From: an uncultured Planctomycetales bacterium
Lineage (GTDB): Bacteria > Omnitrophota > Gorgyraeia > Gygaellales > Profunditerraquicolaceae
Length of the DNA: 64,000 nt
Reading direction: 5' to 3'
Assembly (NCBI GenBank): GCA_964645795.1
Contig: CAZYCL010000004.1
Coordinates: forward strand, 88,292 to 152,291
Below are positions 1,116 to 58,632 of the stretch, piece by piece. Under the pieces are notes generated by a model, which saw only the letters and a list, made by a program, of their open reading frames with translations, had not been told where the DNA came from and ran no database searches. The translations under genes and the position numbers were made by a program. How positions within the stretch are numbered: the stretch's first letter is position 1; each line of letters begins with the position of its first letter.

Positions 1116-1793
1116 ATGTACCGTCCGCTTAAGCTAAAAGTCCGCCCTTCTAAGGCCGTAGTTTTCTTCGATTTCGACAGGACCATCGCCAGCATCGATA
1201 CCTTTGACGACCTGATCTTGCGCTACTCCGTTGACAAAAGATGGGTCAAGATCGAAGAGGACTGGAAGGAAGGCTTGATCGGTTCAAGGGTCTGCCTTTC
1301 AGAGCAGCTTAAGGGTGTCAGGATCCGCAAAAAAGAGCTGGATGCCTACCTCAAAAGGATCAAGATCGACCCCGGATTTAAGATGCTGCTGGGGTTCCTA
1401 AAGAAAAAAAAGATAAAGACATTCATCCTGAGCGATAACTTCGACTACATCCTTAAGAGCATACTTAAGAATAACGGGATCGGCCGCTTAAAGGTTTATT
1501 GCAATAAGCTTAAGATCCAGGGAGACAGGCTTGTGCCGTCTTTCCCGATGCAAAACAAAAAATGCCGCAAGTGCGGCCATTGCAAGGAAAAAAACCTCTT
1601 GGCAAATACAGGCGTGGATTCTATAATATATTATATAGGTGATGGACGTTGTGATATCTGCCCGGCTTTACAGGCAGATTTTGTTTTTGCCAAGGACAGC
1701 CTCCTTCAATACTTCAGGGGCGCGGGGCTGGAGTGCAGTCCTTTCGCAAACCTTGGTAGCGTGCACAGAGAATTGAAGAGGAGCATCGCATGA
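1116..1793 (+). CDS. HAD-superfamily (subfamily IB-like) hydrolase with C-terminal Cys cluster
   Basis: HAD motif I VVFFDFDRTI, downstream ILSDNF/GDGRCDICPA motifs, and a CRKCGHC cluster. Confidence 0.55.
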   Translation: MYRPLKLKVRPSKAVVFFDFDRTIASIDTFDDLILRYSVDKRWVKIEEDWKEGLIGSRVCLSEQLKGVRIRKKELDAYLKRIKIDPGFKMLLGFLKKKKIKTFILSDNFDYILKSILKNNGIGRLKVYCNKLKIQGDRLVPSFPMQNKKCRKCGHCKEKNLLANTGVDSIIYYIGDGRCDICPALQADFVFAKDSLLQYFRGAGLECSPFANLGSVHRELKRSIA

Positions 1794-3205
1794 GCCAAAG
1801 ACAGCTTCAGAAAACAGCCAAAAACGGTCAACAGCAAAAAAACAACAACCTGCTCGATATAGAAGCGCGTTACTGCTCCTGGGGAGATACTGTCCATTAC
1901 TCCCCCAATCCCACTATCTTCAAATCTTGCCAGGGAAGTTTTCTTTATGACCGGGAAGGCACGCCGTATCTTGACCTGCAGATGTGGTATTCGGCGGTCA
2001 ACTTCGGCTACCGCAACAAAAGGCTTAATTCAGCGCTTAAGAAACAGATCGATACCCTGCCGCAGCTGGCCTGTCAGTACCTGCATGAAGAAAAGATACG
2101 GCTGGCAACCAAGCTCTGTCAGAAGAACGAGATGGCCTTTGAAGAGAAAGGTAGGGTGCATTTTAACGTCGGCGGTTCCAGCGCCCTGGAAGATTCCCTG
2201 AAGCTGGTCAGGAACTACACCGGCAGAAGCCTGGTGTTTGCCTTTATGGGCGGCTACCACGGCAGGACCCTGGCAGCATCCGCTATCACCTCAAGCTTCC
2301 GCTACCGCGAGCGCTTCGGGCATTTCGGGGAGCGGGCCTTGTTTGTGCCTTATCCCTATTGTTTCCGTTGCCCCTACGATAAGAAGAGGGAGTTCTGTAA
2401 TTTTTACTGCCTTAAGCAGTTCGCCAGGCTTTTTGAGACCGAGTACCACGCGGTGGTCAACAAAAAGAACAACAAATGCGAGTTCGCCGCCTTTTATGTC
2501 GAGCCGGTGCAGGGGACCGGCGGCTATATCGTGCCGCCCCAGGATTATTTTACCGGCCTGAAGGAGATCCTGGATGCCTACAACATTCTGTTGGTAGACG
2601 ACGAGATCCAGATGGGCATATGCAGGACCGGCAAGTTCTGGGCCATCGAGCATTTCGGCGTTACTCCCGATATCATCGTTTTCGGCAAGGCCCTCACCAA
2701 CGGACTTAATCCCTTGTCCGGGGTATGGGCCAAAGATAAGCTTATCTCTCCGCAGGTTTTTCCTCCGGGGTCCACCCACTCTACCTTCTCTTCTAATCCG
2801 CTGGGGACAGCAGTAGCCCTGGAGACCATGAAGCTTATAGAGGAGTCGAACTTTTCGGTATCCATCCCCAAAAAGGGGGAGTATTTTATCGCCCGCCTTA
2901 AGAAGCTTCAGAAAAAATATCCCCAGATAGGGGACGTAGACGGCCTTGGGCTGGCCTTAAGGGTCGAGATCTGCCAGAAAGACGGCTACACTCCCAATAA
3001 GGAGCTGACCGACGCCATCACCGAGATAGGCCTGGGCGGCAGGCTCTCTGCCGGCGGAAAGCGCAAGGGTCTGATACTGGATGTCGGAGGATACTATAAG
3101 AACGTCTTTACCCTGGCCCCCTCTTTCTACATCAGCGAAAAAGAGATCGACCTTGGCGTTGAGCTCTTTGAAGAAGCCTTGATTAAGGCGCTAAAGGGTC
3201 TTTAG
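1790..3205 (+). CDS. class-III (PLP-dependent) aminotransferase
   Basis: 471 aa with an aminotransferase class-III fold signature: [15 protein letters not shown]-lysine region [15 protein letters not shown]...[12 protein letters not shown]-overlaps the upstream stop. Confidence 0.75.
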
Positions 3206-3312: not shown

Positions 3313-5517
3313 ATGCATTGCGCTTCCTGCGCCGTTAATATCGAACGGGTGTTAAAAAATACTCCGGGCATTGAAACTGCGGCGGTAAACTTCGCGCTTG
3401 AGAAGGCCTATATCAAGTTTGACCCGCAGGCAATAACGCTCGCGGGCATAAAGAAAAAGATCGAGAATGCCGGGTATCTGGCGGTATTTGCGTATAGGCA
3501 CGATGCCGGCGATCCCCTTGACGCCGAAAGCCTCCTGCAGTCCAGAGAAATATCTTCATTAAAGTCAAAGTTCATCTCCTCGTTTTTGCTTTCCCTGCCC
3601 CTGGCTTTTATGGCTTTATCGGAAAGCTTCAACATCCGCCTTCCCGCCTTCTTTTCTCATAATGCCATACTGGCGCAATTCGCCCTGGCCAGCGCGGTCA
3701 TGCTTTTAGGCCACCAGTTCTTTATCCGCGGACTGGTCTCGGTGTTAAAGACAAGACTGGCGAACATGGATACCCTTATCAGCCTGGGCGTAGGCTCTGC
3801 CTATCTTTACAGCCTTATAGTCTCATTGCTTATCTGGTCCGGCTCAAGAGACAAGGGCCACCTCTATTATGACAGCGCCGCTTTTCTTATCAGTTTTATC
3901 CTCCTGGGCAAGTTTTTAGAGTCGGTGGCCCGCGGTAAAGCATCCGAGGCGATAAAAAAGCTTATTGATCTAAGGCCTAAGACCGCCCTGGTTATACGTC
4001 AGGGCAAGGAGGAAGAGATAGCGGTTAGTGATGTGGTAGCCGGGGATATCATAGTGGTCAAGCCCGGGCAAAGGATACCTGTCGACGGAGTGATCCTTGA
4101 AGGGCATTCCCGGGTGGATGAGTCGATGATCACCGGGGAGAGCATGCCGGTGGAAAAGCTCATCGGTCATGAGGTTATAGGCGCCACTATCAATAAGACC
4201 GGATCTTTTAAATTTAAGGCCGGGAAAGTAGGCAAAGATACGGTGCTTGCCCAGATCATAAAGCTGGTACAGGAGGCGCAGGGGTCAAAGGCGGCGATCC
4301 AGGAGATCGCCGATAAGGTCTCGGCGTATTTCGTGCCTTCGGTGCTGGTAATAGGGATAATTACTTTTTACGTATGGTTTTTGTCCGGCAAGGGCATTGC
4401 CTTTGCCCTGGACAACTTTATTTCGGTTTTGATCATCGCCTGCCCGTGCGCTTTGGGGCTGGCAACCCCCACTGCGGTTATCGTAGGTACGGCAGTTGCC
4501 GCGCGTAACGGCATCCTGATAAAGAATGCGCGCAGCCTGGAGCTGGCCCATAAGATACGTTCGGTGGTATTTGATAAGACCGGGACCCTGACGGAGGGCA
4601 AGCCCGTGGTCACCGACGTCATCGCGCTCCCCGGTCACGACCGCAAGGCGCTCTTGAAGTATGCAGCCATAGCCGAAAAGCGTTCGCAGCACCCTTTGGC
4701 AGAAGCGGTAGTGGCCGCGGCTAAAGAAGAAGGGCTGGATATCGAAGAGCCGGACGCATTTAATTCTCTCACCGCCAAAGGGGTGATCGCCCGTTTCAAA
4801 GGGGACATAATCCTTTTGGGTAACCGCGTGCTTTTCTCGGAAAGAAAAGTCGATATTGCGCCCATCCAGGATGAGCTGAAGAACTTGGAGTTACAGGGAA
4901 AGACTACGGTCGCGGTGTCTTTTAAAAATGAACTGCTGGGGGCGATCGCCTGCAGGGACGTGCTTAAAAAACAGGCTAAGAGGGCGGTAGATGTTCTTAA
5001 GAAATCCGCAAGGCAAGTATCTATGATCACCGGAGATAATTTCTCTACAGCCGCAGTCATAGCCAAAGAGGCCGGGATAACCGAAGTTTATGCCCAGCTT
5101 CTCCCGCAGGACAAGGTTGCCCAGATCAAGAAGCTGCAGGGTATGGGGCTGGAGGTAGCTATGGTAGGGGACGGGATCAATGATGCCCCGGCCCTGGCTG
5201 CCGCGGACATCGGTATTGCCATAGGCGCAGGTACCGATGTGGCGCTGGAGTCCGCAGACATTATCCTGATGAAAGATGACCCCATGGATGTTGCGGTGGC
5301 CCTGGACCTGTCGCGTTACTGCATGAAGAAGATAAAGCAGAATCTTTTTTGGGCCTTTGTCTATAATTTGACCGCTATTCCCCTGGCCGCAGGCTTGCTC
5401 TATCCCTTTACGGGCTTTCTTCTCAACCCCGTTATTGCCGCCGCGGCCATGGCTTTCAGTTCGGTAAGCGTAGTGACCAACTCGCTTTTTATGTATGGGT
5501 ACAGAAAAAATACTTGA
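3313..5517 (+). CDS. copA: copper-translocating P-type ATPase (CopA-like) with N-terminal HMA domain
   Basis: GMHCASC metal-binding motif, CPC transmembrane motif ([13 protein letters not shown]), DKTGTLT phosphorylation site, [10 protein letters not shown] hinge. The HMA domain continues in frame upstream of the first ATG, so a non-ATG start (ATT 3277 or CTG 3283, after SD AAAGGGAGGA) is possible. Confidence 0.85.
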
Positions 5518-5542
5518 CAAGTAGTATATTTTGGTCTATACT
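5514..5542 (+). promoter_or_regulatory. near-consensus sigma70 promoter (TTGACA-17 bp-TATACT) with overlapping imperfect palindrome
   Basis: TTGACA at 5514-5519, a 17-nt spacer and TATACT at 5537-5542, 34 bp upstream of the Rrf2 gene. AGTAGTATA...TATACTCTACT is an imperfect inverted repeat across the spacer and -10 element. Confidence 0.55.
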
Positions 5543-5575
5543 CTACTATGTTGATAGGGATTATAGGAGTTAGCT

Positions 5576-6016
5576 ATGCGCATTACTTACAAAGGCGATT
5601 ACGCCCTGAAGACCTTATTGAACCTGGCCCAGCATTACGGGGAGAGGCCGATAAGCATATCTGATTTGGCGGAGCGCGCGGATATCCCGATAAAGTTCCT
5701 GGAGCAGATATTGCTCGATCTTAAAAGAGGCGGATTTGTGGACAGCAGAAGAGGCAAGGTCGGAGGCTATCTCTTAGCCAGGCATCCGGGGAAGATAAAG
5801 CTGGGAGAGGTCATACGTTTTGTGGACGGGCCGATCGAGCCGGTTGCCTGCGTTAACGCCAAGTACAAAGGCTGCAACGATATCGGCAGGTGCGTGTTCC
5901 GCAGTATATGGAGAAAGATACATGACTCTACTTCACACATTGTCGATCAGATCAGCTTTGAGGAGCTGGTAAAAAGAGCAGGCACCAACAGCGTTAAATA
6001 CGACTACCAGATCTGA
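5576..6016 (+). CDS. Rrf2-family transcriptional regulator (IscR/CymR-like)
   Basis: 146 aa with an N-terminal winged-HTH typical of Rrf2 ([60 protein letters not shown]) and a Cys cluster at [15 protein letters not shown]. Confidence 0.85.
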
Positions 6017-6018
6017 TT

Positions 6019-6939
6019 ATGAAAATAGCCAAAGATATAACCAGGCTTATCGGCTCCACGCCGCTGGTGCGCCTGAACAGGATAACGGGAGGCTGCCTTG
6101 CGCAGGTGGTGGCAAAGCTTGAGTCTTTTAACCCCTGTTCTTCGGTCAAGGACCGGATTGGCTTGGCCATGATCGAGCAGGCAGAGAAGGACGCAAGGTT
6201 GCGCCAGGATTCCGTTATAGTCGAGCCTACCTCGGGCAATACGGGCATTGCACTGGCATTTGTAGCGGCGGTTAAGGGGTATAAATTGATACTGACCATG
6301 CCCGAGACGATGAGCATCGAGCGCCGCAAGCTCCTGTCCGCTTTTGGCGCCGAAATAATCCTGACCCCGGGGCCTGAAGGGATGCTGGGTGCGGTGCGCA
6401 AGGCAGAAGAGATCGCCCGCGGAAATAAGAAATATTTTATGCTTCAACAGTTTGAGAATCCGGCAAATCCAGATATCCACCGCAAGACCACGGCTTTGGA
6501 GATCTGGAAGGATACGCAAGGCAAAGTGGATATAGTAGTGGCGGGAGTGGGAACCGGAGGCACAATTACAGGCATCTCCCAGGTATTAAAAAAGAAAAAG
6601 CCTTCTTTGAAGGTCTTTGCTGTGGAGCCTGCCGATTCTCCTGTTTTATCAGGGGGTAAGGCATCTACGCACAAAATACAGGGTATCGGCGCCGGCTTTA
6701 TCCCCAAAGTGCTCGACCGCAGCGTTATCGATGAAGTTATACAGGTCGGCAATGACGAAGCCATAGATACCAGCCGGCAGCTTGCCAGGCAGGAGGGGAT
6801 ACTTGCCGGTATATCTTCGGGGGCGGCAGCCGCGGCTGCGATAAGGGTCGCTAAAAGAAAAGAATTCAAGGATAGGCTAATAGTGGTAATCTTTCCGGAC
6901 TCCGCAGAAAGGTATTTGAGTACGGAGTTGTTCGTTTAA
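6019..6939 (+). CDS. cysK: cysteine synthase A (O-acetylserine sulfhydrylase)
   Basis: PLP-lysine motif [20 protein letters not shown](ITG) loop, SSGAA. 306 aa. Confidence 0.9.
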
Positions 6940-6953
6940 CAAAGGAGGCGGTT

Positions 6954-7178
6954 ATGTTAAGGGAAAAAATCGAAAAAGCCCTGGACAGGGTCAGGCCGAT
7001 GCTGGCAGCAGACGGCGGCAATGTAGAGTTTGTGGATGTGAGCGAGGCGGGAGTGGTGAAACTGAGGCTTAAAGGCGCCTGCGGAAGTTGCCCGATGAGC
7101 CAGATGACCCTTAAGATGGGCATAGAAAAGGTATTAAAGCAGGAGGTCCCTGAAGTAAAAGAGGTTATCGCGGTTTAG
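6954..7178 (+). CDS. NifU-like (Nfu) Fe-S cluster scaffold/carrier domain protein
   Basis: 74 aa with the CGSCPMS (CxxC) motif in a Nfu/NifU C-terminal domain context (LRLKGACGSCPMSQMTLKMGIE). Confidence 0.8.
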   Translation: MLREKIEKALDRVRPMLAADGGNVEFVDVSEAGVVKLRLKGACGSCPMSQMTLKMGIEKVLKQEVPEVKEVIAV

Positions 7179-7201
7179 CAAACGCTAAAGGAGTAGCGGC
7201 C

Positions 7202-8404
7202 ATGAAGACGATCAAAGAGATAAATGAGAAGATAAAGAAAGGCCAGGCAGTGGTGGTGACTGCCGAAGAGATCATTGAGCTCGTAGAGAAAAAGGGCGCC
7301 AGGAAAGCCGCCCAGGAAGTCGACGTGGTCACTACCGGCACGTTCGGACCGATGTGTTCTTCGGGGGCATACTTCAATATCGGCCACTCCAAGCCCAGGA
7401 TAAAGCTGGGTGGCGGGGTTTGCAAGTTGAACGATGTCCCTGCCTACTGCGGTTTTGCGGCCGCGGACATTTACCTGGGGGCCACAGCCATACCGGATGA
7501 TGACCCGCGCAACAAAGTCTTTCCCGGCGAGTTTAAATACGGCGGCGGCCATGTCATCCAGGAGCTGGTAGAGGGAAAAGAGATCAGGCTTGAGGCCGCA
7601 ACCTATGGGACAGACTGTTACCCGCGTAAAAAGCTGGCTACCTATATAGACCTGAAAGGTTTGAATGAGGCGGTCCTTTTTAATATCCGCAACTGTTATC
7701 AAAACTATAATGTCGCAGTCAACTTATCGGAAAAGATGATCTATACCTATATGGGAGCCCTAAAGCCGAACCTCGGCAATGCCAATTATTGCTCCGCCGG
7801 CCAACTTTCTCCTTTATTGAAGGACCCGTACTATAAGACCATCGGAGTAGGCTCCAGGATATTTCTCGCAGGAGGAGTCGGATATGTTGCCTGGCACGGC
7901 ACACAGCATAATCCTTCGGTTGCCAGAAAGGCAAACGGCGTTCCCCAGGCAGGTGCCGGGACTCTTGCAGTAATCGGCGACCTAAAACAAATGAAACCGG
8001 AGTGGCTTTTAGGCACAAGCATGCTTGGTTATGGCTCCAGCCTTATAGTCGGCATCGGAGTGCCCATACCCGTGCTTGACGAGGAGGTAGCCAGGTTTGC
8101 GGCAGCCAAAGACGAAGAGATCTATGCCCAGGTTATCGACTACAGCAATAATTACCCGAATTGTATCGCCGGTTCCCTGGCCGAGGTAAATTACGCCCAG
8201 CTTCGTTCGGGCAAGATCGTCGTTAACGGCAAGTCCGCGCCCACCGGAACGCTCTCCAGTTACTCCAAGGCACGCCAGATCTGTGAAGAGCTTAAGTCTT
8301 GGATCAAGAGAGGAGAGTTCTTGCTTACCGAACCGGTAGCGCCTCTGCCCGGGGCAGAATCAGGCTATACCTTCAGGATGTTGGATGAAAAACCGTTAAG
8401 TTAA
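7202..8404 (+). CDS. COG1900/DUF39 family protein (sulfide-dependent homocysteine biosynthesis protein)
   Basis: 400 aa. Family assignment is by similarity pattern and by the conserved adjacency to a NIL-domain ferredoxin, as in the MA1821/MA1822 system. Confidence 0.6.
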   Translation: MKTIKEINEKIKKGQAVVVTAEEIIELVEKKGARKAAQEVDVVTTGTFGPMCSSGAYFNIGHSKPRIKLGGGVCKLNDVPAYCGFAAADIYLGATAIPDDDPRNKVFPGEFKYGGGHVIQELVEGKEIRLEAATYGTDCYPRKKLATYIDLKGLNEAVLFNIRNCYQNYNVAVNLSEKMIYTYMGALKPNLGNANYCSAGQLSPLLKDPYYKTIGVGSRIFLAGGVGYVAWHGTQHNPSVARKANGVPQAGAGTLAVIGDLKQMKPEWLLGTSMLGYGSSLIVGIGVPIPVLDEEVARFAAAKDEEIYAQVIDYSNNYPNCIAGSLAEVNYAQLRSGKIVVNGKSAPTGTLSSYSKARQICEELKSWIKRGEFLLTEPVAPLPGAESGYTFRMLDEKPLS

Positions 8405-8419
8405 AGGGGGAGAGCCAAG

Positions 8420-8827
8420 ATGGTTTCCACGAGGATCGTTCTGCATTTTCCTTACCGGCTGGTAGACCAGCCCATAGTTTATAAGCTGGTCAAAGAGTAT
8501 GACCTAAGCTTCAATATCCTGAAGGCCTATGTTACTCCCCAGGAAGAGGGGCTGATGGTTTTGGAGCTTACGGGCGAGAAGGACAACTTTGACAAGGGGA
8601 TAGAGTATCTGCAGAGCTGCGGGGTAAGGATCCAGCCCTTAAGCCAGGATGTCATCCGCAACCAGGCCAAATGTACCGATTGCGGCGTCTGCGTCCCCAT
8701 ATGTCCGGCAGAGGCATTGGTGGTCGATCCCAAATCCAAAAAAGTACTTTTCTACGATAATAAGTGCATCGCTTGCGAGCTCTGTGTCAAGATCTGTCCC
8801 ACCCGGGCCATGGAAGTCAGATTTTAG
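8420..8827 (+). CDS. NIL-domain protein fused to 2x[4Fe-4S] ferredoxin (partner of COG1900)
   Basis: N-terminal NIL-like domain (LSFNILKAYVTPQEEGLMVLELTG) followed by two CxxCxxCxxxCP motifs (CTDCGVCVPICP, CIACELCVKICP). Confidence 0.75.
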   Translation: MVSTRIVLHFPYRLVDQPIVYKLVKEYDLSFNILKAYVTPQEEGLMVLELTGEKDNFDKGIEYLQSCGVRIQPLSQDVIRNQAKCTDCGVCVPICPAEALVVDPKSKKVLFYDNKCIACELCVKICPTRAMEVRF

Positions 8828-8829
8828 TA

Positions 8830-9639
8830 ATGAAGGCCGCCGTCAGAAAACTAGCCAAGCTTGAGCGTATAATCAAGGGGTGCGGTTCCTGCGTGGTCGC
8901 TTATTCCGGAGGCCTGGACAGCAGTTTTCTTCTCCACGTCGCCAGCCGCCTGCTGGCTGCCCGTAGCGTCTTGGCAGTAACAGCCGACTCCGAACTTTAC
9001 CCCTCCAAAGAGCTGGAGTTCGCAAAATCAGTATGCGGCAAGCTCGGCATCAGGCAGAAGGTAATAAGAACAAGGCAGCTGCAAAACAAGGCTTTTATCA
9101 AAAATAGCCCCCAGCGCTGTTATATATGCAAAAAAGGGCTTTTGAAAGAATGCTGGAAGATCGCCAGGGCCAAGCGCCTAAAATACGTCTTTGATGCCGC
9201 CAATATTTCCGATAGGGCCGATTTTCGCCCCGGAGAAAAGGCAAAGAAAGAGCTTAGGGTCCGCTCTCCTCTGGTCGAGGCCCGGATAAATAAAGACGAG
9301 ATACGTTATCTTAGCCGCAGGCTAGGCCTTGCGACCTGGGATAAACCTGCACTGGCCTGCCTTGCCTCCAGGATACCTTATGGCAGACAGATAACTCATG
9401 CGGCGCTGTCACGGATAGGCAAGGCCGAGGATTATTTGCTCCGGCAAGGCTTCAGCCAGGCAAGGGCCAGGGACTATGGAGACATCTGCAGGATCGAAGT
9501 GCCAGTAAATAAATTAAAACAGCTGTTAAGAAAGAAAAACGCGGTGGTAAAGACCCTTAAGAAAGCAGGATATAAATATGTTACGGCGGATCTGGAAGGC
9601 TACCGCCAAGGCAGCCTGAATGAGGCGTTTAAAAAATGA
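8830..9639 (+). CDS. PP-loop ATP pyrophosphatase family protein (LarE-like / TIGR00268-type sulfur-transferase ATPase)
   Basis: SGGLDSS PP-loop motif near the N-terminus. Start reassigned to ATG 8830, which follows the NIL-Fd stop; the six-frame ORF begins at 8764 inside the upstream gene. Confidence 0.7.
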   Translation: MKAAVRKLAKLERIIKGCGSCVVAYSGGLDSSFLLHVASRLLAARSVLAVTADSELYPSKELEFAKSVCGKLGIRQKVIRTRQLQNKAFIKNSPQRCYICKKGLLKECWKIARAKRLKYVFDAANISDRADFRPGEKAKKELRVRSPLVEARINKDEIRYLSRRLGLATWDKPALACLASRIPYGRQITHAALSRIGKAEDYLLRQGFSQARARDYGDICRIEVPVNKLKQLLRKKNAVVKTLKKAGYKYVTADLEGYRQGSLNEAFKK

Positions 9640-10799
9640 AAAAGATATATTTTGATTACGCCGCCACCACCCCAACAGACCCGGAAGTCACAAGGGCCAT
9701 GGAGCCTTACTACTTTGAGAAGTTCGGCAACGCCTCCAGCTTCCACGGGTTCGGGCAAGAGGCAAAAAAAGGCGTGGAAGACGCACGGGAGGCGCTGGCT
9801 TCATTTCTGGGGGCCAGGCCCGAAGAGATAATCTTTACTTGCGGCGGGACAGAATCGAATAATTTCGTAATTCAGGGGGTTAGCGCGGCAATGAAAGAGA
9901 AGGGCAACCATATCATAACCAGCGCTATCGAACACCATTCTGTCGGCGAGCCCTGCCAGCACTTGGAGAAGAAGGGTTTTAAAGTGACTTATGTCGGCGT
10001 GGATAAGTACGGAGTGGTCTCTGCGCAGGAGATAAAACAAGCGATAACCGATAAGACCATACTTATAAGCGTAATGCACGCCAATAATGAGATCGGTTCG
10101 ATACAACCTATTGCCCAGATCGGCCGGATAGCCAGGGAAAAGGGGGTGTATTTCCATACTGATGCGGTGCAGACCGTCGGCCATATCCCTACCGACGTAA
10201 ACGAGCTTAATGTGGATTTTTTGTCGCTTTCAGCGCATAAATTCTACGGCCCCAAGGGCGTCGGCGCCTTATATGTAAGAAAGGGGAGTAAAATCCATCC
10301 GTATTTGCGCGGAGGGGGCCAGGAGAGAGGCAGGCGCGCATCAACGCTTAACAGCCCCGGTATCGTAGGCCTGGGTAAGGCTATCCAGATATGCGCCAAA
10401 GAAATGGAAAAGGAAGCCGGTTTTCAGTCCGGCCTTCGCGACAAGATCATCTTTGAGGTAAAAAAGCGCATCCCCGAGGTGTATCTTAACGGCCATCCGA
10501 CCGAAAGGCTGCCCAATAACGTAAATTTTTCGGTCAAATACATAGAAGGGGAGTCGATGCTTTTACGCCTTGATATGCAGGGTATCGCTGCTTCCAGTGG
10601 TTCGGCCTGCACTTCGGCTACGCTTGAGCCTTCGCACGTGCTCTTGGCAACGGGTCTGGAGCATGATCTGGCCCACGGCTCATTAAGGGTGACTCTGGGC
10701 AGGTGGAGCTGCCGGGAAGAAGTAGATTATTTTCTGGAGTGTTTTCCCGGGATAGTGGACAAGCTGCGCCGGATGTCGCCGCTTTACGAAGAAAAATAA
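9636..10799 (+). CDS. iscS: cysteine desulfurase (NifS/IscS family, class-V aminotransferase)
   Basis: PLP-lysine SLSAHKFYGPKGVGALY, active-site Cys loop SSGSACTS, 387 aa. ATGA-overlaps the upstream stop. Confidence 0.9.
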   Translation: MKKIYFDYAATTPTDPEVTRAMEPYYFEKFGNASSFHGFGQEAKKGVEDAREALASFLGARPEEIIFTCGGTESNNFVIQGVSAAMKEKGNHIITSAIEHHSVGEPCQHLEKKGFKVTYVGVDKYGVVSAQEIKQAITDKTILISVMHANNEIGSIQPIAQIGRIAREKGVYFHTDAVQTVGHIPTDVNELNVDFLSLSAHKFYGPKGVGALYVRKGSKIHPYLRGGGQERGRRASTLNSPGIVGLGKAIQICAKEMEKEAGFQSGLRDKIIFEVKKRIPEVYLNGHPTERLPNNVNFSVKYIEGESMLLRLDMQGIAASSGSACTSATLEPSHVLLATGLEHDLAHGSLRVTLGRWSCREEVDYFLECFPGIVDKLRRMSPLYEEK

Positions 10800-10901
10800 A
10801 CCGCATGCCGTGGCGCTCAAACATCCTCGCCGTGCCGAGATCGCCCCGCCTATGGCGGGGCCTTAGTCTATGTGAAAGGGCACTTTTAAATTTAGACCAA
10901 C

Positions 10902-11864
10902 ATGAACGAGAAGATAATTGAGTTTTTGAAGAAAAAAGAAGGGTATGTATCCGGGGACCAGATCGCCCACAGGCTCGGGATCAGCCGGCAGGCGCTCTGG
11001 AAGCATATTCAGGAGCTCAAAGATTTAGGTTACGATATTGTAGCCGTGCCGCATTTGGGTTACCGCCTGGACGCCGCTCCTGACCGGCTTTTTGATTTTG
11101 AAATAAAGAGCGCTCTCAATACCAGGTTCGTCGGCAGGCAAATACACTATTTTGAGAACGCTGCTTCCACGATGGAGATCGCCACAAGGCTTGCCCTTGG
11201 AGGCTGTCCGGAAGGGACGCTGGTCATAGCCGAAAGCCAGACTAGAGGCAAGGGGAGGATGGGCAGGAGTTGGTTTTCGCCCAGACATAAAGGGATTTAT
11301 GCATCCCTGATATTAAGGCCCAATACGCTGCCATCCCAGGTATCGGTCCTGACCTTATTAGCCGCGGTCAGTATCGTGGAGGCGCTAAACGAATTCTGCG
11401 GCGTCCCTTCAAAGATCAAGTGGCCAAACGATGTGGTCCTGGAGGGCAGGAAATTAGCCGGGATACTTACCGAGCTTAACGCCGAGATGGACAGGGTCAA
11501 CTTCGTGGTCCTTGGGATAGGCATTAATGTAAATAACGATAAAAAATCCCTGATAAGCGGGGCGGCATCCCTCAAGAGTTTCCTTGGCCATAGCCTAAAT
11601 TTGAACAGGGTGGGGCTCCTGCAGGCGATACTGCGCAGGATCGAAGACAATTATTCCTCTTTTCAAAAAGGCCATCTGCAGGGCATCCTGGAAAAATGGA
11701 AGCAGATGTCGGTAACGCTGGGCACAAGGGTCAAGGTCTATTGCCAGAATGAGCAGGTGGAGGGAGAGGCGGTGGATATAGATTCTGACGGGGGGCTCCT
11801 GGTAAGGCGCGACAGCGGGATCACCGAAAAGATAACCGCGGGCGATGTGGTGGCCTGCCGTTAA
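10902..11864 (+). CDS. birA: bifunctional biotin-[acetyl-CoA-carboxylase] ligase / repressor BirA
   Basis: N-terminal HTH (VSGDQIAHRLGISRQALWKHIQELKDLGY), catalytic QTRGKGRMGRSWFSP (GRGRxGR) motif, and a C-terminal SH3-like domain. Confidence 0.9.
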   Translation: MNEKIIEFLKKKEGYVSGDQIAHRLGISRQALWKHIQELKDLGYDIVAVPHLGYRLDAAPDRLFDFEIKSALNTRFVGRQIHYFENAASTMEIATRLALGGCPEGTLVIAESQTRGKGRMGRSWFSPRHKGIYASLILRPNTLPSQVSVLTLLAAVSIVEALNEFCGVPSKIKWPNDVVLEGRKLAGILTELNAEMDRVNFVVLGIGINVNNDKKSLISGAASLKSFLGHSLNLNRVGLLQAILRRIEDNYSSFQKGHLQGILEKWKQMSVTLGTRVKVYCQNEQVEGEAVDIDSDGGLLVRRDSGITEKITAGDVVACR

Positions 11865-11896: not shown

Positions 11897-11937
11897 TTGA
11901 CATTTATATCGGCGCCTATTATAATAGGCGCCGATAT
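11897..11937 (+). promoter_or_regulatory. perfect consensus sigma70 promoter overlapped by a perfect 32-bp palindrome (operator-like; could also act as the birA terminator hairpin)
   Basis: TTGACA at 11897-11902, a 17-nt spacer and TATAAT at 11920-11925. ATATCGGCGCCTATTATAATAGGCGCCGATAT (11906-11937) is an exact inverted repeat centred on the -10 element, followed by TTTT and then the receptor gene ATG at 11941. Confidence 0.6.
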
Positions 11938-11940
11938 TTT

Positions 11941-13779
11941 ATGCGCTACTTATTTACCATGGGCATCCTGCTGTATTTATCGGTATTTATCCTTGCCTTT
12001 GCGGCTGTGGGCCTGGGGGCAGAAGGCGGCGATCTGGGCAGGATCGTGGTCAGGTCCCGAGCCATTGACGCAGAGGATGCCATTGGTCACTGTGCAATCG
12101 CCAAAGAATCGATAACCGGCCGGCAGCTCGAACAGGCCCATATCGGCTCGCTACAGGAAGCCCTTGATTATGTAAGCGGAGTTGATCTACGCGTGCGCTC
12201 TAGCCGCGGCATACAGGCGGATCTGTCCATGCGCGGCTCTACCTACGAGCAGGTAGCCGTGCTTATAGACGGGGTAAGGGTCGGGGACCCCCAAACCGGC
12301 CATCATAATCTGGACATACCGCTCACCGTAGCCGACATCGAGCGCATAGACGTGATCAAGGAGCCCGCCTCTTCGCTTTATGGACCGGGTGCCTTTGCCG
12401 GGGCCGTCAATATCATAACTAAGAAATCCGGCAAAAGCTCTTTGAGGGCGGAGTCAGTTTTCGGGGAGCATGCCCTCCGAGAGCAGGGCATATATTGCGA
12501 TCTGAACGCCGCCGGCTCTTTCTTTAAAAGCTCGTTTGAAAATAAATCTGCCAAGGCCGCGCGCCCCGATACCGATTTCGATTATCATACCGGGACAGTA
12601 TCGTTTAGCAGGCAGGAAGGCAGTTTTGATATCGATTCCTTCTTTGGCTACCAGGAAAAGGATTTTGGCGCAGGCAGCTTTTACTCCAACCTCTTCCCCG
12701 AAGAAGAGGAGCATACCCGGACCCTCTTTACCCGGACAGCCGTTAACTACGATCTTAAGCCCGGCGTATTCAAAAACAACCTCTATTTCAGGAGGCATTG
12801 GGATAAATTTATCCTGCGCCGCAGCATGCCCACAGGGGCCAATTACCACACCACTTATGTCTACGGCCTGGACTCCCAACTGCGCCTGCCCTTTGATTAT
12901 GGAGAGCTTATCCTGGGGGCAGAAGAGCATGAGGAGCGCATAGTTTCCAATAATCTGGGCAGGCATTCGAGGTTTAACCAGGGATTGGCTATCGGCCTTA
13001 TCCCAGATCTGGGCAAGGATTGGCGGGCGGCCGTTCGTTTCAGGGATGATTATCTGCAGGGTTGGGGCTGGAATGAATCTTTTAACTGCGGCCTGGGTTA
13101 TAGGCTCATCGATGGATTATGGCTGCGGTCTTCTGCCGGGCGCGCCTGGCGTATCCCCAGCTTTACCGAGCTTTATTACAATGATGCCGCCAACAAAGGC
13201 AACCCCAGCCTCGGGGCAGAGACCAGCGACAGCTTCTCGCTGGGGTTGGAGTTTGGGCGCGGGCCCTTCAAAATGTCCCTGGACCGCTACCTTCGACGGG
13301 CAAGGGATCTTATTGACTGGACGCGGGCTGATGCTTCCGGGCCCTGGCAGGCCTCGAATATCGGCAAGGCGGATTTTCAAGGGCTGGAGCTGGGCTTGTC
13401 ATGGACCGGGGCGTTTGAAGCCGGGCTGATCAGAGTAAATAAAATCCAGTTTTTCTACAATAACCTCGATACGCAAAATAAGCAGCAGGGTTTTTCCTCC
13501 AAGTATGCCCTTGATACGCTAAAACACCAGCTGGTCCTTAAAAGCAGCGCCGGCCTTTGCGGTATTGACTTCAACCTCCATCTTTCCTACAATCAGAGGT
13601 GTTTGGGGGAGAGCTACTTTGTGGGCAGCCTTTCCGTCTCGCGCCGCTTCAAATGCAAAGCTGTTCATTTTGAGCCGTTCGTCAAGGCAGACAATTTTAC
13701 CGATACAGAATATTCCGAGATCGGGGGAGTTATCCAGCCAGGCAGATGGCTTAAGTCGGGGGTAAAGTTCGAGTGGTGA
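11941..13779 (+). CDS. TonB-dependent outer-membrane receptor (small, ~610 aa)
   Basis: Signal peptide MRYLFTMGILLYLSVFILAFAA and a plug domain (DAIGHCAIAKESITGRQLEQ...GVDLRVRSSRG, IDGVRVGDPQTGHHNLDIPL, IERIDVIKEPASSLYGPGAFAGAVNIITK). A terminal Phe/Trp beta-barrel closing motif (KFEW) is present. Confidence 0.85.
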   Translation: MRYLFTMGILLYLSVFILAFAAVGLGAEGGDLGRIVVRSRAIDAEDAIGHCAIAKESITGRQLEQAHIGSLQEALDYVSGVDLRVRSSRGIQADLSMRGSTYEQVAVLIDGVRVGDPQTGHHNLDIPLTVADIERIDVIKEPASSLYGPGAFAGAVNIITKKSGKSSLRAESVFGEHALREQGIYCDLNAAGSFFKSSFENKSAKAARPDTDFDYHTGTVSFSRQEGSFDIDSFFGYQEKDFGAGSFYSNLFPEEEEHTRTLFTRTAVNYDLKPGVFKNNLYFRRHWDKFILRRSMPTGANYHTTYVYGLDSQLRLPFDYGELILGAEEHEERIVSNNLGRHSRFNQGLAIGLIPDLGKDWRAAVRFRDDYLQGWGWNESFNCGLGYRLIDGLWLRSSAGRAWRIPSFTELYYNDAANKGNPSLGAETSDSFSLGLEFGRGPFKMSLDRYLRRARDLIDWTRADASGPWQASNIGKADFQGLELGLSWTGAFEAGLIRVNKIQFFYNNLDTQNKQQGFSSKYALDTLKHQLVLKSSAGLCGIDFNLHLSYNQRCLGESYFVGSLSVSRRFKCKAVHFEPFVKADNFTDTEYSEIGGVIQPGRWLKSGVKFEW

Positions 13780-13794: not shown

Positions 13795-15687
13795 ATGGAA
13801 AAATATTTTGAACTTCCCAGGATCAATCCGCAATACGTGCGCTCTAAGGATTACTTTTTTCTTTTTGAGACCTCTCGATGCAGCCGCCAGGATTTCATGA
13901 GCTATATTTTTAGTGATCCCGTAGAGGTCATAGTGGCGAGCGCTCCCCAGGATATAGAAGAGGCATTCGCCCGGCTCCAGAGGCGCTGTGAAAGGTTTTA
14001 TCTCTGCGGCTGGATTGCCTATGAGCTGGGGTATATTTTTGAGCGCGCGTCATTTTCTCATTCAGGCGTCTCTGGAAAACCCCTGGTCTGTTTTTGCGTT
14101 TTTAAAGATGCCCTAAGCTTTGACCATAGGAATGGCGAGGTTTGCGCAAATACCAAAGGCCTGTTTTCGCGCTCGTCCCGGCGCGCCGATTTTAGTGTGC
14201 GCCGGTTAAGGTTTGACATCGGCGAAGAAGATTACCGCAGAAAGGTCTCCAGGATCAAAGATTACATAAGAAAAGGCGATGCTTACCAGGTCAACTTCAC
14301 CAGCCGCTTTAACTTTAGATTTGCCGGCCAGCCTCTGGCTTTATACGAATCCCTAAGGGCCAGCCAAAGCGTTGCCTTCGGGGCTTTTTGTAAACTCAAG
14401 GACAGCTACGTTATATCTTTATCTCCGGAGTTGTTCTTCAGGATCGAAGGCAACCGCATCTATTCCAGGCCGATGAAAGGGACTATCTCGCGCGGCCCTA
14501 GCTGCGAGCTAGACGCTATCCAGGCAAAAAAACTTTTCTCCAGCGCCAAAGACCGCGCGGAAAATCTGATGATCACGGACCTGGTGCGTAACGACCTGGG
14601 CAGGATCTGCCGCACCGGCAGCGTAAAGACGGAGAATCTTTTTGATATCGAAAAGTACAACACGGTTTTTCAAATGACCTCGACCGTCAAAGGCAAGCTC
14701 AAGAGCAGCGTTTCCTATTACGACATATTCAAAAACATCTTTCCCGGCGGTTCGGTGACCGGCGCGCCGAAAATACGCTCGATGCAGATCATCAGGGAGC
14801 TGGAGAGAGGCAGGAGAGGCATTTACTGCGGGGCGCTGGGGATGATCTTTCCCGGCAAGAAGGCGGTGTTCAATCTTCCTATCCGCACGCTGGTATTATC
14901 AAAAGGCAGGGGGCATATGGGGGCAGGAAGCGGTGTGGTCATTGATTCCCGGGCAGAGGATGAGTTTCGCGAGTGCCTGCTTAAAGGCAGGTTCCTTAGC
15001 CACAGGTGCAAGGAGTTCGATCTTATTGAAACCATGCTTTGGGACAGAGAATACCGGCTTCTTGCCCTGCATCTAAGACGGCTTGCTTCTTCCGCGGCCT
15101 ACTTCGGATTTAACTTTGACCGCGGATACATTTTGTCGCGCCTGCGCAATGCCGAAGCAGGATTTAGCCGGGCACGCAAACATAGGGTCAGGCTTATTCT
15201 CGACAGGTCCGGCAGGGTTGAAATCACGGCCTCTGCCATAGGCGTCCAGGATCCTGCGCCGGCAAAGAAGGCAGCCGTATCCAGGCACAGGACAGATCCG
15301 CAGGATCCATTCCTTTACCATAAAACAACCAACCGTTTGTTATACGAACGCGAGCACGCCGTTTATAAGAAGAAAGGATTTTACGACGCGGTATTCCTTA
15401 ATAAAAGAAATGAATTTACAGAAGGCGCCATTTCCAATATAATTGTGGAAATAGGCGGCAATCTTTATACGCCGCCAGTTAGTTGCGGTTGCCTTCCCGG
15501 AGTATTCCGGCAGCATCTGCTGAGCCAGGGAAAACTGAAAGAAAGAATCATTAAACCTCAGGACCTCAATAAGGCAGACAGGGTGTTTTTGGCTAATTCC
15601 GTCAGAGGCCTGGTCGAGGTTAAAATCGATGTTCATCCATACCGTCCTCTTCGAGATAAAACCAAAAGAAGTCGCCGCTTACCGTAA
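13795..15687 (+). CDS. pabBC: fused aminodeoxychorismate synthase component I (PabB) / aminodeoxychorismate lyase (PabC, class-IV aminotransferase)
   Basis: N-terminal chorismate-binding domain (GDAYQVNFTSRF, NLMITDLVRNDLGRIC, GAPKIRSMQIIRELERGRRGIYCGALG). C-terminal class-IV aminotransferase fold (FDLIETMLWD...GFYDAVFLNKRNEFTEGAISNI). Confidence 0.85.
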   Translation: MEKYFELPRINPQYVRSKDYFFLFETSRCSRQDFMSYIFSDPVEVIVASAPQDIEEAFARLQRRCERFYLCGWIAYELGYIFERASFSHSGVSGKPLVCFCVFKDALSFDHRNGEVCANTKGLFSRSSRRADFSVRRLRFDIGEEDYRRKVSRIKDYIRKGDAYQVNFTSRFNFRFAGQPLALYESLRASQSVAFGAFCKLKDSYVISLSPELFFRIEGNRIYSRPMKGTISRGPSCELDAIQAKKLFSSAKDRAENLMITDLVRNDLGRICRTGSVKTENLFDIEKYNTVFQMTSTVKGKLKSSVSYYDIFKNIFPGGSVTGAPKIRSMQIIRELERGRRGIYCGALGMIFPGKKAVFNLPIRTLVLSKGRGHMGAGSGVVIDSRAEDEFRECLLKGRFLSHRCKEFDLIETMLWDREYRLLALHLRRLASSAAYFGFNFDRGYILSRLRNAEAGFSRARKHRVRLILDRSGRVEITASAIGVQDPAPAKKAAVSRHRTDPQDPFLYHKTTNRLLYEREHAVYKKKGFYDAVFLNKRNEFTEGAISNIIVEIGGNLYTPPVSCGCLPGVFRQHLLSQGKLKERIIKPQDLNKADRVFLANSVRGLVEVKIDVHPYRPLRDKTKRSRRLP

Positions 15688-16067: not shown

Positions 16068-17132
16068 ATGAGAAAACGTGTAGTTGTAGCGATGAGTGGA
16101 GGGGTGGACTCTTCGGTAGCCGCGGCGCTTCTTCAAAAAGAAGGCCATGAAGTCATCGGGATGACCATGTGCTTTGGCGTCGCCTCATCCGATGAAAAAC
16201 CCGGCTGTTGCGGCATGCAGGCAATAGAAGACGCCCGGCGCATCTGTCACAGGCTTGGCATCAGGCATTATGTAGTGGACCTGCAGAAGGTTTTTAAAGA
16301 AAAGGTGATAGGCCAGTTCTTGCAGGAGTATGCCGCCGGACGCACGCCCAACCCTTGCATAAGGTGCAACCAATTCGTCAAGTTCGATGCGCTCATGAAG
16401 AAGGCCCTGGCCCTGGATGCGGATTATCTGGCCACCGGCCATTACGCTCGGATCACAAAGCAGGCCGGTATCTTCCGGCTTAAAAAGGGTGTCGACAAGT
16501 TTAAGGACCAGTCGTATTTTCTTTACCGGTTTACCCAAAAACAACTGCGGCATACGCTTTTTCCGGTAGGCATTTACACCAAGGCTGAAGTCAGGAGCCT
16601 GGCAAGGGAGTTTGAGCTGCCGGTAGCAGATAAAAGGGAGAGCCAGGAGATATGTTTTTTAGGGGATGAGGGTTTAAAAGATTTTTTGCGCCGCCGGTTA
16701 ACGGCCGGGGTTTCGGCCGGTCATATCAAGGATAAATACGGCAGGCATCTGGGCAGGCACCAAGGCATAGCTTTTTATACCGTGGGCCAGCGCGAGGGCC
16801 TGGGCATTGCCGCAGGCTATCCGGTTTATATCAGCTCTATCAATGCCGCATCCAACCTGATAACCATAGGTCCCCGCAAAGACTGCCATGCCAGGGAGTT
16901 TCTGGTGAGGCAAGCCAATTTTATAACGGGCAGGCCAAAAAAGAAGGTTGTCCTCAAAGTCAAGATACGTTATAATCACAAGGAGTCGGCGGCAGAAGTC
17001 TTTGCCGTTGATAGCTGCGTCAAGGTCATATTCGGGAAACCTCAATTCGCCATAACTGCGGGGCAATCCGCGGTATTTTATGACCGGGATACAGTGGTCG
17101 GGGGAGGGATAATTAACAGGGTGATCAAATGA
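16068..17132 (+). CDS. mnmA: tRNA-specific 2-thiouridylase MnmA
   Basis: PP-loop AMSGGVDSSVAA, catalytic Cys region (NPCIRCNQFVKF), 354 aa. Confidence 0.9.
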   Translation: MRKRVVVAMSGGVDSSVAAALLQKEGHEVIGMTMCFGVASSDEKPGCCGMQAIEDARRICHRLGIRHYVVDLQKVFKEKVIGQFLQEYAAGRTPNPCIRCNQFVKFDALMKKALALDADYLATGHYARITKQAGIFRLKKGVDKFKDQSYFLYRFTQKQLRHTLFPVGIYTKAEVRSLAREFELPVADKRESQEICFLGDEGLKDFLRRRLTAGVSAGHIKDKYGRHLGRHQGIAFYTVGQREGLGIAAGYPVYISSINAASNLITIGPRKDCHAREFLVRQANFITGRPKKKVVLKVKIRYNHKESAAEVFAVDSCVKVIFGKPQFAITAGQSAVFYDRDTVVGGGIINRVIK

Positions 17133-46211: not shown

Positions 46212-46297
46212 TCGTTAACCGTTGATCGGTTGCGTAGCTGGAAACCTCATGCGTAAAGATTTGAGCTACGAAACCCAAATGCGCAACACGGCTAAAC

Positions 46298-46792: not shown

Positions 46793-46793
46793 G

Positions 46794-47708: not shown

Positions 47709-47711
47709 AAA

Positions 47712-48140: not shown

Positions 48141-48141
48141 A

Positions 48142-48573: not shown

Positions 48574-48574
48574 T

Positions 48575-49765: not shown

Positions 49766-49768
49766 AAA

Positions 49769-52062: not shown

Positions 52063-52066
52063 GGCT

Positions 52067-58402: not shown

Positions 58403-58448
58403 CGGCTTTACTTGAAAATATATAAATAATATAGTATAATTGTCTTAG

Positions 58449-58632
58449 CCGATAAAGGTAAACCTCTGCTTTAACAAGCAGACACGCCGCAAGCCCTGCG
58501 GCGCGCATTGAAAAATGGGGGCACAAAGCTACAGACCTAAGCCCGCCAGCTCCAGGGCGGGTATGGTGGCTGGGTTGCCGAGATAAAAGGAAGGGCAGAA
58601 GCTTATTCTGCTTGCCTTTATCGGCTTTTTAT
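58449..58632 (+). ncRNA. candidate ~185-nt structured small RNA (6S-RNA-like closed architecture; identity unconfirmed)
   Basis: ORF-free 360-bp gap. A 5' AGCCGATAAAGG pairs perfectly with a 3' CCTTTATCGGCT that is followed by TTTTT. Internal hairpins TCTGCTT-taac-AAGCAGA, CCCGCC-agctccag-GGCGGG and GCAGAA-gctta-TTCTGC. Confidence 0.35.

Follow-up and report, generated by a model that had tools for sequence, protein, structure and literature searches.

A conserved Rrf2-headed gene cluster of Candidatus Omnitrophota with genes for cysteine and predicted homocysteine synthesis, Fe-S clusters and a LarE homologue

We describe a compact cluster of sulfur and Fe-S genes at positions 5576 to 10799 of a 64-kb stretch of DNA (the window), which is part of a metagenome-assembled genome of Candidatus Omnitrophota. 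Seven genes follow each other on the plus strand. They encode an Rrf2-family regulator, an O-acetylserine sulfhydrylase (CysK), an Fe-S carrier (Nfu), a COG1900 protein (also DUF39 or HcyBio), a ferredoxin with a NIL domain (NILFd), a LarE-family ATP pyrophosphatase and a NifS-type cysteine desulfurase. A promoter and an operator-like element precede the cluster, and a biotin ligase gene, birA, comes after it:

5514..5542, plus strand: sigma-70-type promoter, TTGACA-17 nt-TATACT (-35 at 5514-5519, -10 at 5537-5542)
5539..5569, no strand assigned: operator-like element of ~31 nt, TACTCTACTA-N5-ATAGAGATTATAG, an imperfect dyad centred at ~5550; its second half is also given as ATAGRGATTATAG and ATAGGGATTATAGGAG
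5576..6016, plus strand: Rrf2-family regulator, 146 aa (PF02082, E=1.7e-36)
6019..6939, plus strand: CysK, O-acetylserine sulfhydrylase, 306 aa (TIGR01139, 480.7 bits against a cutoff of 350.95)
6954..7178, plus strand: Nfu, Fe-S carrier with NifU C-terminal domain and CxxC, 74 aa (PF01106, E=9.5e-31)
7202..8404, plus strand: COG1900/DUF39/HcyBio protein, 400 aa (PF01837, E=3.2e-151, 503.6 bits against a cutoff of 26.2)
8420..8827, plus strand: NIL domain with 2x[4Fe-4S] ferredoxin, 135 aa (PF09383, E=1.8e-16, and Fer4 models)
8830..9639, plus strand: LarE-family PP-loop ATP pyrophosphatase, 269 aa (TIGR00268, 295.5 bits against a cutoff of 150)
9636..10799, plus strand: NifS-type class I cysteine desulfurase, 387 aa (TIGR03402, 557.1 bits against a cutoff of 530.75)
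10843..10861, plus strand: G+C-rich hairpin GCCCCGCC-UAU-GGCGGGGC without U-tract, in the 102-bp gap between nifS and birA
10902..11864, plus strand: BirA, bifunctional biotin ligase/repressor (TIGR00121, 217.5 bits against a cutoff of 83)

The open reading frames (ORFs) of the window were identified by profile scans with Pfam and NCBIfam; equivalog cutoffs are those of NCBIfam. These scans bear out the families that a sequence-only reading of the window had assigned to all seven genes, and the seven co-directional ORFs stand where it had placed them, with one correction, to the start of larE. The most likely start is not the GTG at 8764 but the ATG at 8830, 2 bases after the stop codon of the NIL-ferredoxin gene: independent gene calls give a protein of 269 aa, and in the longer form the first 28 residues lie outside the family match, which sets in at residue 29. 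The genes are as tightly packed as claimed: the intergenic gaps are 2, 14, 23, 15, 2 and -4 bp, and ribosome-binding sites are present wherever the gaps leave room. The stop codon of larE overlaps the start of nifS by 4 bp, and the two genes are translationally coupled. A scan for promoter and terminator consensus sequences found no convincing internal terminator or promoter within the operon.

The two ends of the transcription unit are less sharply drawn. Upstream, the stop codon of copA (TGA, 5515-5517) sits inside the -35 hexamer, so that read-through from copA is possible. Downstream, the hairpin at 10843-10861 is possibly a weak end of the transcription unit. The RNA fold of 10800-10901 has an energy of -35.6 kcal/mol (z=-2.1); the hairpin was not picked up when we scanned for terminator consensus sequences. 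Most relatives have a spacing of only 6-12 bp between nifS and birA. Hence birA probably belongs to the operon there.

The gene order is conserved far beyond this one genome. A scan with one genome per species yielded 80 loci with a COG1900 protein 71-83% identical to that of the window, and we mapped their gene order by tblastn with all window proteins. Among these loci 58 are labelled Candidatus Omnitrophota or Omnitrophica; the other labels are mostly automatic ones such as 'Planctomycetales', and a few name Desulfobacterota or Chloroflexota. The commonest architecture is Rrf2-CysK-Nfu-HcyBio-NILFd-LarE-NifS-BirA, the same as in the window. It is complete in 9 loci, and contig ends cut off many more. 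The constant core is HcyBio-NILFd: the ferredoxin adjoins HcyBio in 69 of the 80 loci. LarE is a neighbour in 45 loci and NifS in 39; either may be missing while the other stays. CysK directly follows Rrf2 in most loci, and BirA comes after the cluster in 48. Across the loci the median identity is 78% for both HcyBio and NILFd, 70% for NifS and 53% for LarE.

Where loci vary, they insert only sulfur-related genes: Thi4, ThiM/ThiE, IscU (in 6 related loci), CysE, ThiF, a DUF169 protein, an AIR-synthase-like protein and MetY/MetX/MetW. Two of these inserts belong to uncharacterised families. The DUF169 protein (PF02596) lies between CysK and Nfu, for example at 8949-9701 of locus L008, and also in L010, L019 and L042. 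The AIR-synthase-related protein, which weakly resembles HypE, ThiL and SelD, lies between NifS and BirA (L027, 13596-14630; also L024, L025 and others).

A consensus promoter had been proposed ahead of the Rrf2 gene, and it holds up well. It matches 11 of 12 consensus positions, and both hexamers and the 17-nt spacing are kept in more than 30 orthologous loci. The consensus match alone is not significant: the 7-kb region contains 6 such matches, while 6.8 are expected from shuffled sequences. What makes the promoter credible is that hexamers and spacing recur upstream of Rrf2 in more than 30 species while the sequence of the spacer varies.

The operator is a different matter. The sequence-only reading had marked an imperfect palindrome at 5514-5542, overlapping the promoter, as the site of autoregulation. 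We reject this palindrome: the promoter spacer, which holds its left arm, differs freely from one orthologous locus to the next, and an ungapped inverted-repeat search missed it. The conserved element instead starts inside the -10 box and extends across the predicted transcription start to a point 6 nt short of the Rrf2 start codon. Its position weight matrix (PWM), built from 31 loci, has 45 bits. It finds a single match in the window at 41.9 bits, and the next best site reaches 9.2 bits. Allowing up to 3 mismatches, the window contains 1 match, where 0 are expected. In 1.2 Mb of related loci 35 of the 36 PWM matches of at least 16 bits are directly upstream of Rrf2, one per locus; the sole exception is a marginal site of 16.7 bits in L052. 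Autoregulation itself is therefore plausible, since a conserved operator lies on the regulator's own promoter in every locus examined, but the operator is not the palindrome that had been marked.

The register of the element is fixed to the -10 box. Its distance to the start codon varies and reaches ~100 nt in L014 and L031. Because the element is locked to the -10 box and not to the start codon, we read it as a DNA operator and not as an RNA element. A leader or riboswitch is rejected on the same ground, and on the Rfam scan as well: no riboswitch, for S-adenosylmethionine (SAM) or otherwise, was found ahead of the operon, and Rfam matches the window only once, with a c-di-GMP-I riboswitch at 58.4 kb. 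The operator is presumably unlike the type-1 and type-2 consensus sequences of IscR, a resemblance that we did not test.

A search for further operator copies in front of other sulfur genes had been suggested. Within the window there are none: neither Thi4 nor MnmA nor any other gene has a copy upstream, and the next best site is the one at ~9 bits. In metagenomes such copies do occur. A metagenome-wide scan with the pattern CTCTACTA-N5-ATAGRSATTATA found at least 120 matching loci. Among the 120 matches listed, 94 have an Rrf2 orthologue that starts no more than 250 nt downstream. Seven other listed matches keep TTGACA-N17-TATA and lead into genes for a DUF2292 small protein, a secreted protein of ~285 aa and MetY-CysK-MetX-MetW; one of these metY-type loci, L194, also carries Rrf2 in that operon. 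In L109 promoter and operator (224-248 in extract orientation) head an operon that starts with a PAPS-reductase-family gene (PF01507), followed by a permease and CysK. The remaining listed matches lack a promoter context; six of them are one conserved site upstream of a sugar-binding protein, which we treat as chance. Given that the operator also heads metY-cysK-metX-metW and PAPS-reductase-cysK operons, the regulon is a small one of sulfur amino-acid metabolism, and this lends support to the functional theme of the sequence-only reading.

Two of these operon types have features of their own. After the PF01507 gene, the L109 operon contains PiT-like permease, CysK, siroheme-synthase-like and HemA-like genes, the last three identified by eye only. 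The seven metY-type loci (L097, L110, L131, L133, L147, L172 and L194) have a leader of 120-300 nt downstream of promoter and operator. This leader encodes a short peptide with the run M(M)CCMxMC(C), for example MQLNIYNIKMMMCCMAMCCYLR*. The hairpin CCCACTACC...GGTAGTGGG comes after the leader peptide and carries a T-run in four of the seven loci (L110, L133, L172 and L194); the extracts of L097 and L131 end at the hairpin, and that of L147 ends before it. No Rfam family matched the leader of the seven loci. It looks like a Cys/Met leader-peptide transcription attenuator ahead of the DUF2292 gene, the gene for the secreted protein and metY-cysK-metX-metW.

Which signal might the regulator read at its operator? 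Three cysteines, Cys92, Cys100 and Cys106, are kept in 34, 34 and 33 of 34 Rrf2 orthologues. The closest solved relative is IscR of Thermincola (4CIC, E=4e-28), and the triad aligns with its cluster-ligand positions, which are Ser-substituted in that structure. In the same alignment CymR of Bacillus subtilis (2Y75) is gapped across the three-Cys region. The invariant triad and its alignment with the 4CIC ligands support an Fe-S-binding, IscR-like reading. We therefore predict an Fe-S-sensing, IscR-like autoregulator that belongs to the Rrf2 family but is not IscR proper. The CymR-type regulator that the sequence-only reading had in mind is not upheld, as triad and alignment point to an Rrf2 protein of the Fe-S type.

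A regulator that works like CymR nevertheless has to be weighed. In B. subtilis CymR forms a regulatory complex with CysK. If the Omnitrophota protein did the same, it would bind DNA only when complexed with the adjacent CysK and would be released by O-acetylserine. The signal would then be the level of the cysteine precursor and not Fe-S. It is true that rrf2 and cysK are adjacent in most loci (2 bp apart in the window) and that the regulon consists of sulfur amino-acid genes. It is also true that neither equivalog model is reached and that the two score level: 99.3 bits for IscR (TIGR02010, cutoff 207.55) and 99.1 bits for CymR (NF047409, cutoff 195). Yet the three-Cys triad is typical of cluster-binding Rrf2 proteins, and it falls where 2Y75 is gapped. 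The score lies far under the CymR cutoff, and in some loci Thi4 or MetY stands between rrf2 and cysK. Overall, we find CymR-like control improbable and keep the Fe-S-sensing autoregulator as our prediction.

The core of the cluster is the COG1900 protein with its ferredoxin partner. As claimed, the protein at 7202-8404 belongs to DUF39/COG1900: PF01837 covers it in full length (profile positions 1-349 of 349). It has no CBS domain. Against the methanogenesis-marker-16 model (TIGR03287) it scores 122 bits, with a cutoff of 364, over profile positions 1-280 of 391 only. It also has no inserted ferredoxin domain. Thus it is not of the COG1900d or marker-16 subtype, the coenzyme M synthase. Three of its cysteines are conserved: C52 in 79, C139 in 80 and C197 in 77 of the 80 loci. 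COG1900a proteins have two near-universal cysteines, in MA1821 the essential Cys54 and Cys131 (PMC12068725), and by position C52 and C139 would be their equivalents. No solved structure is detectable for the COG1900 protein by sequence search. The partner at 8420-8827 does contain the NIL domain that had been read from the sequence, as the PF09383 scan shows, plus two 4Fe-4S motifs, and its eight cysteines are conserved in 68-69 of 72 orthologues.

That such a pair forms homocysteine, which had been stated for methanogens, is established genetically in bacteria too (PMC4045070, PMC5764234, PMC12068725). In Desulfovibrio alaskensis the DUF39 gene is required for homocysteine synthesis (PMC4045070). 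D. vulgaris needs DUF39, the NIL/ferredoxin protein and COG2122 for homocysteine, and homoserine is not an intermediate (PMC5764234). In Methanosarcina acetivorans L-aspartate-semialdehyde sulfurtransferase is MA1821/MA1822 (PMC12068725). For the Omnitrophota pair we predict that the COG1900 protein is the catalytic subunit of this sulfurtransferase and that the NIL-ferredoxin is its electron-donating, methionine-sensing subunit.

The 'LarE-like' ATPase of the sequence-only reading can be named more precisely. With an equivalog score of almost twice the cutoff it is a genuine LarE-family member, and it matches the Lactiplantibacillus plantarum LarE structures at E=7.5e-44. Its CxxC...C motif aligns with that of the [4Fe-4S] LarE 8CNZ, and the third cysteine is one residue off the sacrificial Cys176 of L. 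plantarum. A shift of this kind has been described for LarE of Thermotoga maritima, a CxxC-C enzyme with a bound [4Fe-4S] cluster that is catalytic as long as it receives sulfur from IscS and cysteine (PMC9283937). All three cysteines (C97, C100 and C177) are invariant in 45 orthologues. The PP-loop S26-G-G-L-D30-S (SGGxDS; positions 24-30 counted) is kept as well: S26, G28 and D30 occur in 45/45 orthologues, G27 in 41/45. Among the residues that bind the phosphate of P2CMN, a phosphorylated pyridinium nucleotide, S180 is present in all 45 and R212 and R214 in 44 each; R181 is invariant or nearly so. The simplest reading is a genuine, non-sacrificial [4Fe-4S] CxxC-C LarE placed beside its sulfur donor NifS, and the NCBI name 'sacrificial' is probably wrong for this protein. 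The best 120 LarE matches are all 52-59% identical, and every organism name given is Omnitrophota, Omnitrophica or 'bacterium'.

The residues expected of the remaining Fe-S and sulfur carriers are likewise in place. C43 and C46 of Nfu are invariant in 55/55 orthologues, and the catalytic C325 of NifS (SGSACTS loop) is present in 38/38.

Taken together, we consider it likely that the cluster is one promoter-driven operon, conserved across Candidatus Omnitrophota, that brings reduced sulfur into cysteine and homocysteine and hands sulfur from cysteine on to Fe-S clusters and a [4Fe-4S]-dependent thiolation enzyme. The gene identities, the ligand residues, the packing, the conserved gene order and the operator's conservation and fixed place on the promoter are observed; we infer what the enzymes do, which way the regulator acts and what it senses, and take the steps of the mechanism from family membership. 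CysK would make cysteine from sulfide and O-acetylserine. The COG1900 protein and the NIL/2x[4Fe-4S] ferredoxin would make homocysteine from aspartate semialdehyde, sulfide and two electrons, with the NIL domain possibly providing methionine feedback. NifS would draw sulfur from cysteine as a persulfide, and Nfu would carry Fe-S clusters, on which the ferredoxin, LarE and the regulator all depend. The LarE homologue would adenylate a carboxylate of P2CMN or a close analogue and swap its oxygen for a sulfur held on the open iron of the [4Fe-4S] cluster; NifS would then reload it. The Rrf2 protein would bind the dyad over the -10 box and transcription start as a dimer, probably in its cluster-loaded state, and repress its own operon. 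Expression would hence rise when clusters or cysteine-derived sulfur run short.

Several observations weigh against this picture. The regulator stays below both the IscR and the CymR cutoff, so that Fe-S is only a putative signal. About 9 loci have no LarE in the cluster, and ~13 retain HcyBio-NILFd but not NifS. These modules are thus separable, and their coupling is not obligatory. LarE is also far less conserved than HcyBio (the medians of 53% and 78% given above). With the hairpin behind nifS and the gap of 102 bp before birA, the transcript has no clearly marked 3' end. Partner genes do not lie close by: among the ~50 ORFs of the 64-kb window Pfam finds no larA, larB, larC, COG2122, cysE, asd or met genes (including metE/metH), and none of them occurs in the flanking DNA covered, ~1 kb upstream of the window, with an isochorismatase-family gene and thiE, and 10 kb downstream of it. 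Whatever supplies CysK, HcyBio and LarE with substrates or works with them must then be encoded elsewhere or be absent, and COG2122 was required in D. vulgaris (PMC5764234).

The COG1900 route may not be the only one to homocysteine. The window has no met genes, but two loci (L042, 4453-8964, and L050, 216-4739) contain metY, metX and metW inside an operon headed by Rrf2 and the operator, upstream of Nfu-HcyBio-NILFd-LarE-NifS-BirA. Their MetY proteins score 668-684 bits with TIGR01326 (cutoff 495), and MetX scores 517 bits with NF001209 (cutoff 331). Hence both homocysteine routes coexist in part of the lineage. There is a precedent for this coexistence: M. acetivorans also keeps an O-acetylhomoserine sulfhydrylase.

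The position of LarE behind the COG1900 pair could be explained differently. In Desulfovibrio and Methanosarcina the ApbE-like COG2122 protein loads the sulfur. LarE and NifS might replace it here, as an ATP-dependent module that delivers sulfur to the COG1900 enzyme, or the two might thiolate an aspartate-derived carboxylate. LarE follows HcyBio-NILFd in the 45 loci counted above, which include a few labelled Desulfobacteraceae (L072, L081) and L086. The absence of COG2122 and of larA, larB and larC from the window and the 10 kb past its 3' end would fit, and the delivery of sulfur to DUF39 is acknowledged to be unresolved (PMC5764234, PMC12068725). However, the phosphate-site residues of L. 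plantarum LarE (S180, R212 and R214) are kept in 44-45 of 45 orthologues, which together with the equivalog score, passed almost twofold, indicates a nucleotide substrate. Several lineages keep HcyBio-NILFd without an adjacent LarE or without an adjacent NifS, LarE evolves much faster than HcyBio, and we found no paper that links LarE to DUF39. We regard such a delivery module as a poor bet.

The same idea can be taken further. In Omnitrophota and a few Desulfobacterota, LarE and NifS would have been recruited as the sulfur loader of COG1900 in place of COG2122, so that homocysteine sulfur would come from cysteine persulfide, at the expense of ATP, and not from free sulfide. The regulon would stand under a previously undescribed Fe-S-sensing Rrf2 operator, joined in sister operons to the Cys/Met-rich leader-peptide attenuator. 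We think it unlikely that this scenario, as a whole, is correct. A LarE that thiolates a nucleotide, beside a COG1900 pair that uses sulfide, remains our reading.

Another possibility starts from the Fe-S genes. The cluster could be an Fe-S biogenesis operon that has accreted genes for cysteine supply and for Fe-S clients, with a COG1900 protein that acts on another aldehyde, as marker-16 does on sulfoacetaldehyde, and does not make homocysteine. In its favour, the regulator resembles IscR proteins most and carries the three cluster-ligand cysteines, NifS scores above the FeS_nifS equivalog cutoff, and IscU is inserted in the 6 related loci. Furthermore, COG1900 enzymes overlap in their aldehyde specificity in Methanosarcina (PMC12068725). 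Against this, the COG1900 protein is far under the marker-16 cutoff and has no inserted ferredoxin domain; its partner is a separate NIL-ferredoxin, just as in the homocysteine systems, and no coenzyme M genes are present. The metY, metX and metW genes of L042 and L050 lie in the same operon, and the operator also heads metY-cysK-metX-metW operons, which ties the regulon to sulfur amino acids. We find this reading unlikely and retain an operon for both sulfur amino acids.

Finally, the word 'island' that the sequence-only reading used for the cluster should not be read as foreign DNA: base composition is uniform across the window (~0.52 GC, even skew), and we reject horizontal transfer on this ground.

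Two neighbours had been linked to the operon. The Thi4 gene at 336-1109 is confirmed as the sulfide-dependent type (TIGR00292, 319 bits), and MnmA at 16068-17132 is what it was said to be. Both are conserved neighbours, but in the window they are separate transcription units. Thi4 is found on the upstream side, past copA. Between the operon and MnmA, 5 kb further downstream, stand other genes and another promoter at 11897-11925. A sulfur relay to tRNA, as had been proposed, may be suggested by this conserved neighbourhood. Read from its sequence only, MnmA (plus strand) contains ...NPCIRCNQ... and ...EICFLGD..., a CxxC...C pattern, whereas MnmA of E. coli has DxxC...C at that place. This would suggest an MnmA of the [4Fe-4S]-dependent type, in line with the Fe-S-type LarE and the sulfide-dependent Thi4 nearby.

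The intervening genes are varied. Between Thi4 and copA (1116-3205, plus strand) a HAD/PHOSPHO-type phosphatase (PF06888) and a class-III aminotransferase (PF00202) overlap by 4 bp. The promoter at 11897-11925 (plus strand) is a perfect 12/12 match, TTGACA-17-TATAAT, and lies just upstream of a TonB-dependent receptor gene (11941-13779). Behind it, at 13795-15687 (plus strand), an ORF of 630 aa fuses a chorismate-binding, PabB-like domain to an aminotransferase class IV domain that resembles aminodeoxychorismate lyase.

The rest of the window has a different character. From 22710 to 44229 (plus strand) runs a dense series of signalling genes: hybrid histidine kinases with PAS domains, response regulators, a LuxR-type regulator and a CheA-like kinase, interleaved with genes for a TonB receptor, a solute-binding protein, a radical SAM protein and an ABC exporter. 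It is followed at 44327-56610 by an Mrp/Mbh-like membrane complex (NADH dehydrogenase subunit H-like, proton-antiporter-like, MbhD/E and ferredoxins) with an FAD/NAD-binding oxidoreductase, and a HycI-type hydrogenase maturation protease is encoded just past the end of the window (in L089). One of the few minus-strand genes, an ORF of 530 aa at 48506-50098, matches no Pfam family at E<=1e-5. The c-di-GMP-I riboswitch already mentioned lies at 58447-58582 (plus strand; RF01051, 48.9 bits against a gathering threshold of 35), ~180 nt upstream of a glycosyl hydrolase family 1 gene (58763-59983).

What does the operon tell us about its hosts? Omnitrophota are uncultured, often ultra-small bacteria whose biosynthetic self-sufficiency is debated, and we found no relevant literature on their sulfur amino-acid synthesis. 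A conserved and regulated operon of this kind suggests that many Omnitrophota produce their sulfur amino acids themselves in sulfidic, anoxic settings. The locus further offers a clean, testable element, the 31-nt operator with its cognate Rrf2 protein, and, for biochemical work, a natural pair of a catalytic LarE and its desulfurase. Every component falls into a characterised family, and the route through DUF39 and NIL-ferredoxin, [4Fe-4S] LarE and autoregulation of the IscR type are already established; nothing changes in what is known of any of these enzyme families. New are the phylum, the fixed gene order in which cysteine and homocysteine synthesis stand together with NifS, Nfu and LarE, and the well-defined Rrf2 operator.

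Each part of the operon has a known counterpart. In B. subtilis, cymR-yrvO(nifS-like)-mnmA places an Rrf2 cysteine regulator beside a desulfurase and near mnmA, and CysK is functionally tied to it. CymR differs in that it is without the three-Cys cluster site, recognises a different operator and involves no COG1900 or LarE genes. Operons of the iscR-iscS-iscU type, with Thermincola potens IscR (4CIC) as the regulator of known structure, are closer in design: a three-Cys Rrf2 protein is encoded first, a desulfurase and a scaffold or carrier follow, and the operator overlaps the promoter. Unlike isc operons, the Omnitrophota operon includes amino-acid biosynthesis genes, and its regulator scores 99 bits against an IscR cutoff of 208.

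LarE has its best counterparts in T. maritima, together with IscS (PMC9283937), and in Methanococcus maripaludis (8CNZ). They share SGGxDS, the CxxC-C ligands and the phosphate-binding Ser/Arg residues, and a cysteine desulfurase as donor, which in Omnitrophota is encoded by the translationally coupled downstream gene. The gene described here differs in its setting: it does not stand beside larB, larC or larA but is embedded in a cysteine/homocysteine operon.

For homocysteine synthesis, MA1821/MA1822 of M. acetivorans share the COG1900 catalytic subunit, the NIL-ferredoxin and the two conserved cysteines (PMC12068725). The archaeal subunit has a C-terminal CBS domain for regulation by SAM, whereas the Omnitrophota protein has none. 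The pathway of D. vulgaris and D. alaskensis is also bacterial and likewise uses a COG1900 protein without CBS and a separate NIL and ferredoxin protein (PMC4045070, PMC5764234). By this likeness, aspartate semialdehyde and sulfide would be expected to be used without homoserine in Omnitrophota too. In Desulfovibrio, however, the genes are scattered (DvMF_1464, DvMF_0262 and DvMF_0044) and COG2122 is required. The Omnitrophota window contains no COG2122, and the pair shares an operon, headed by an Rrf2 gene, with CysK, Nfu, LarE and NifS.

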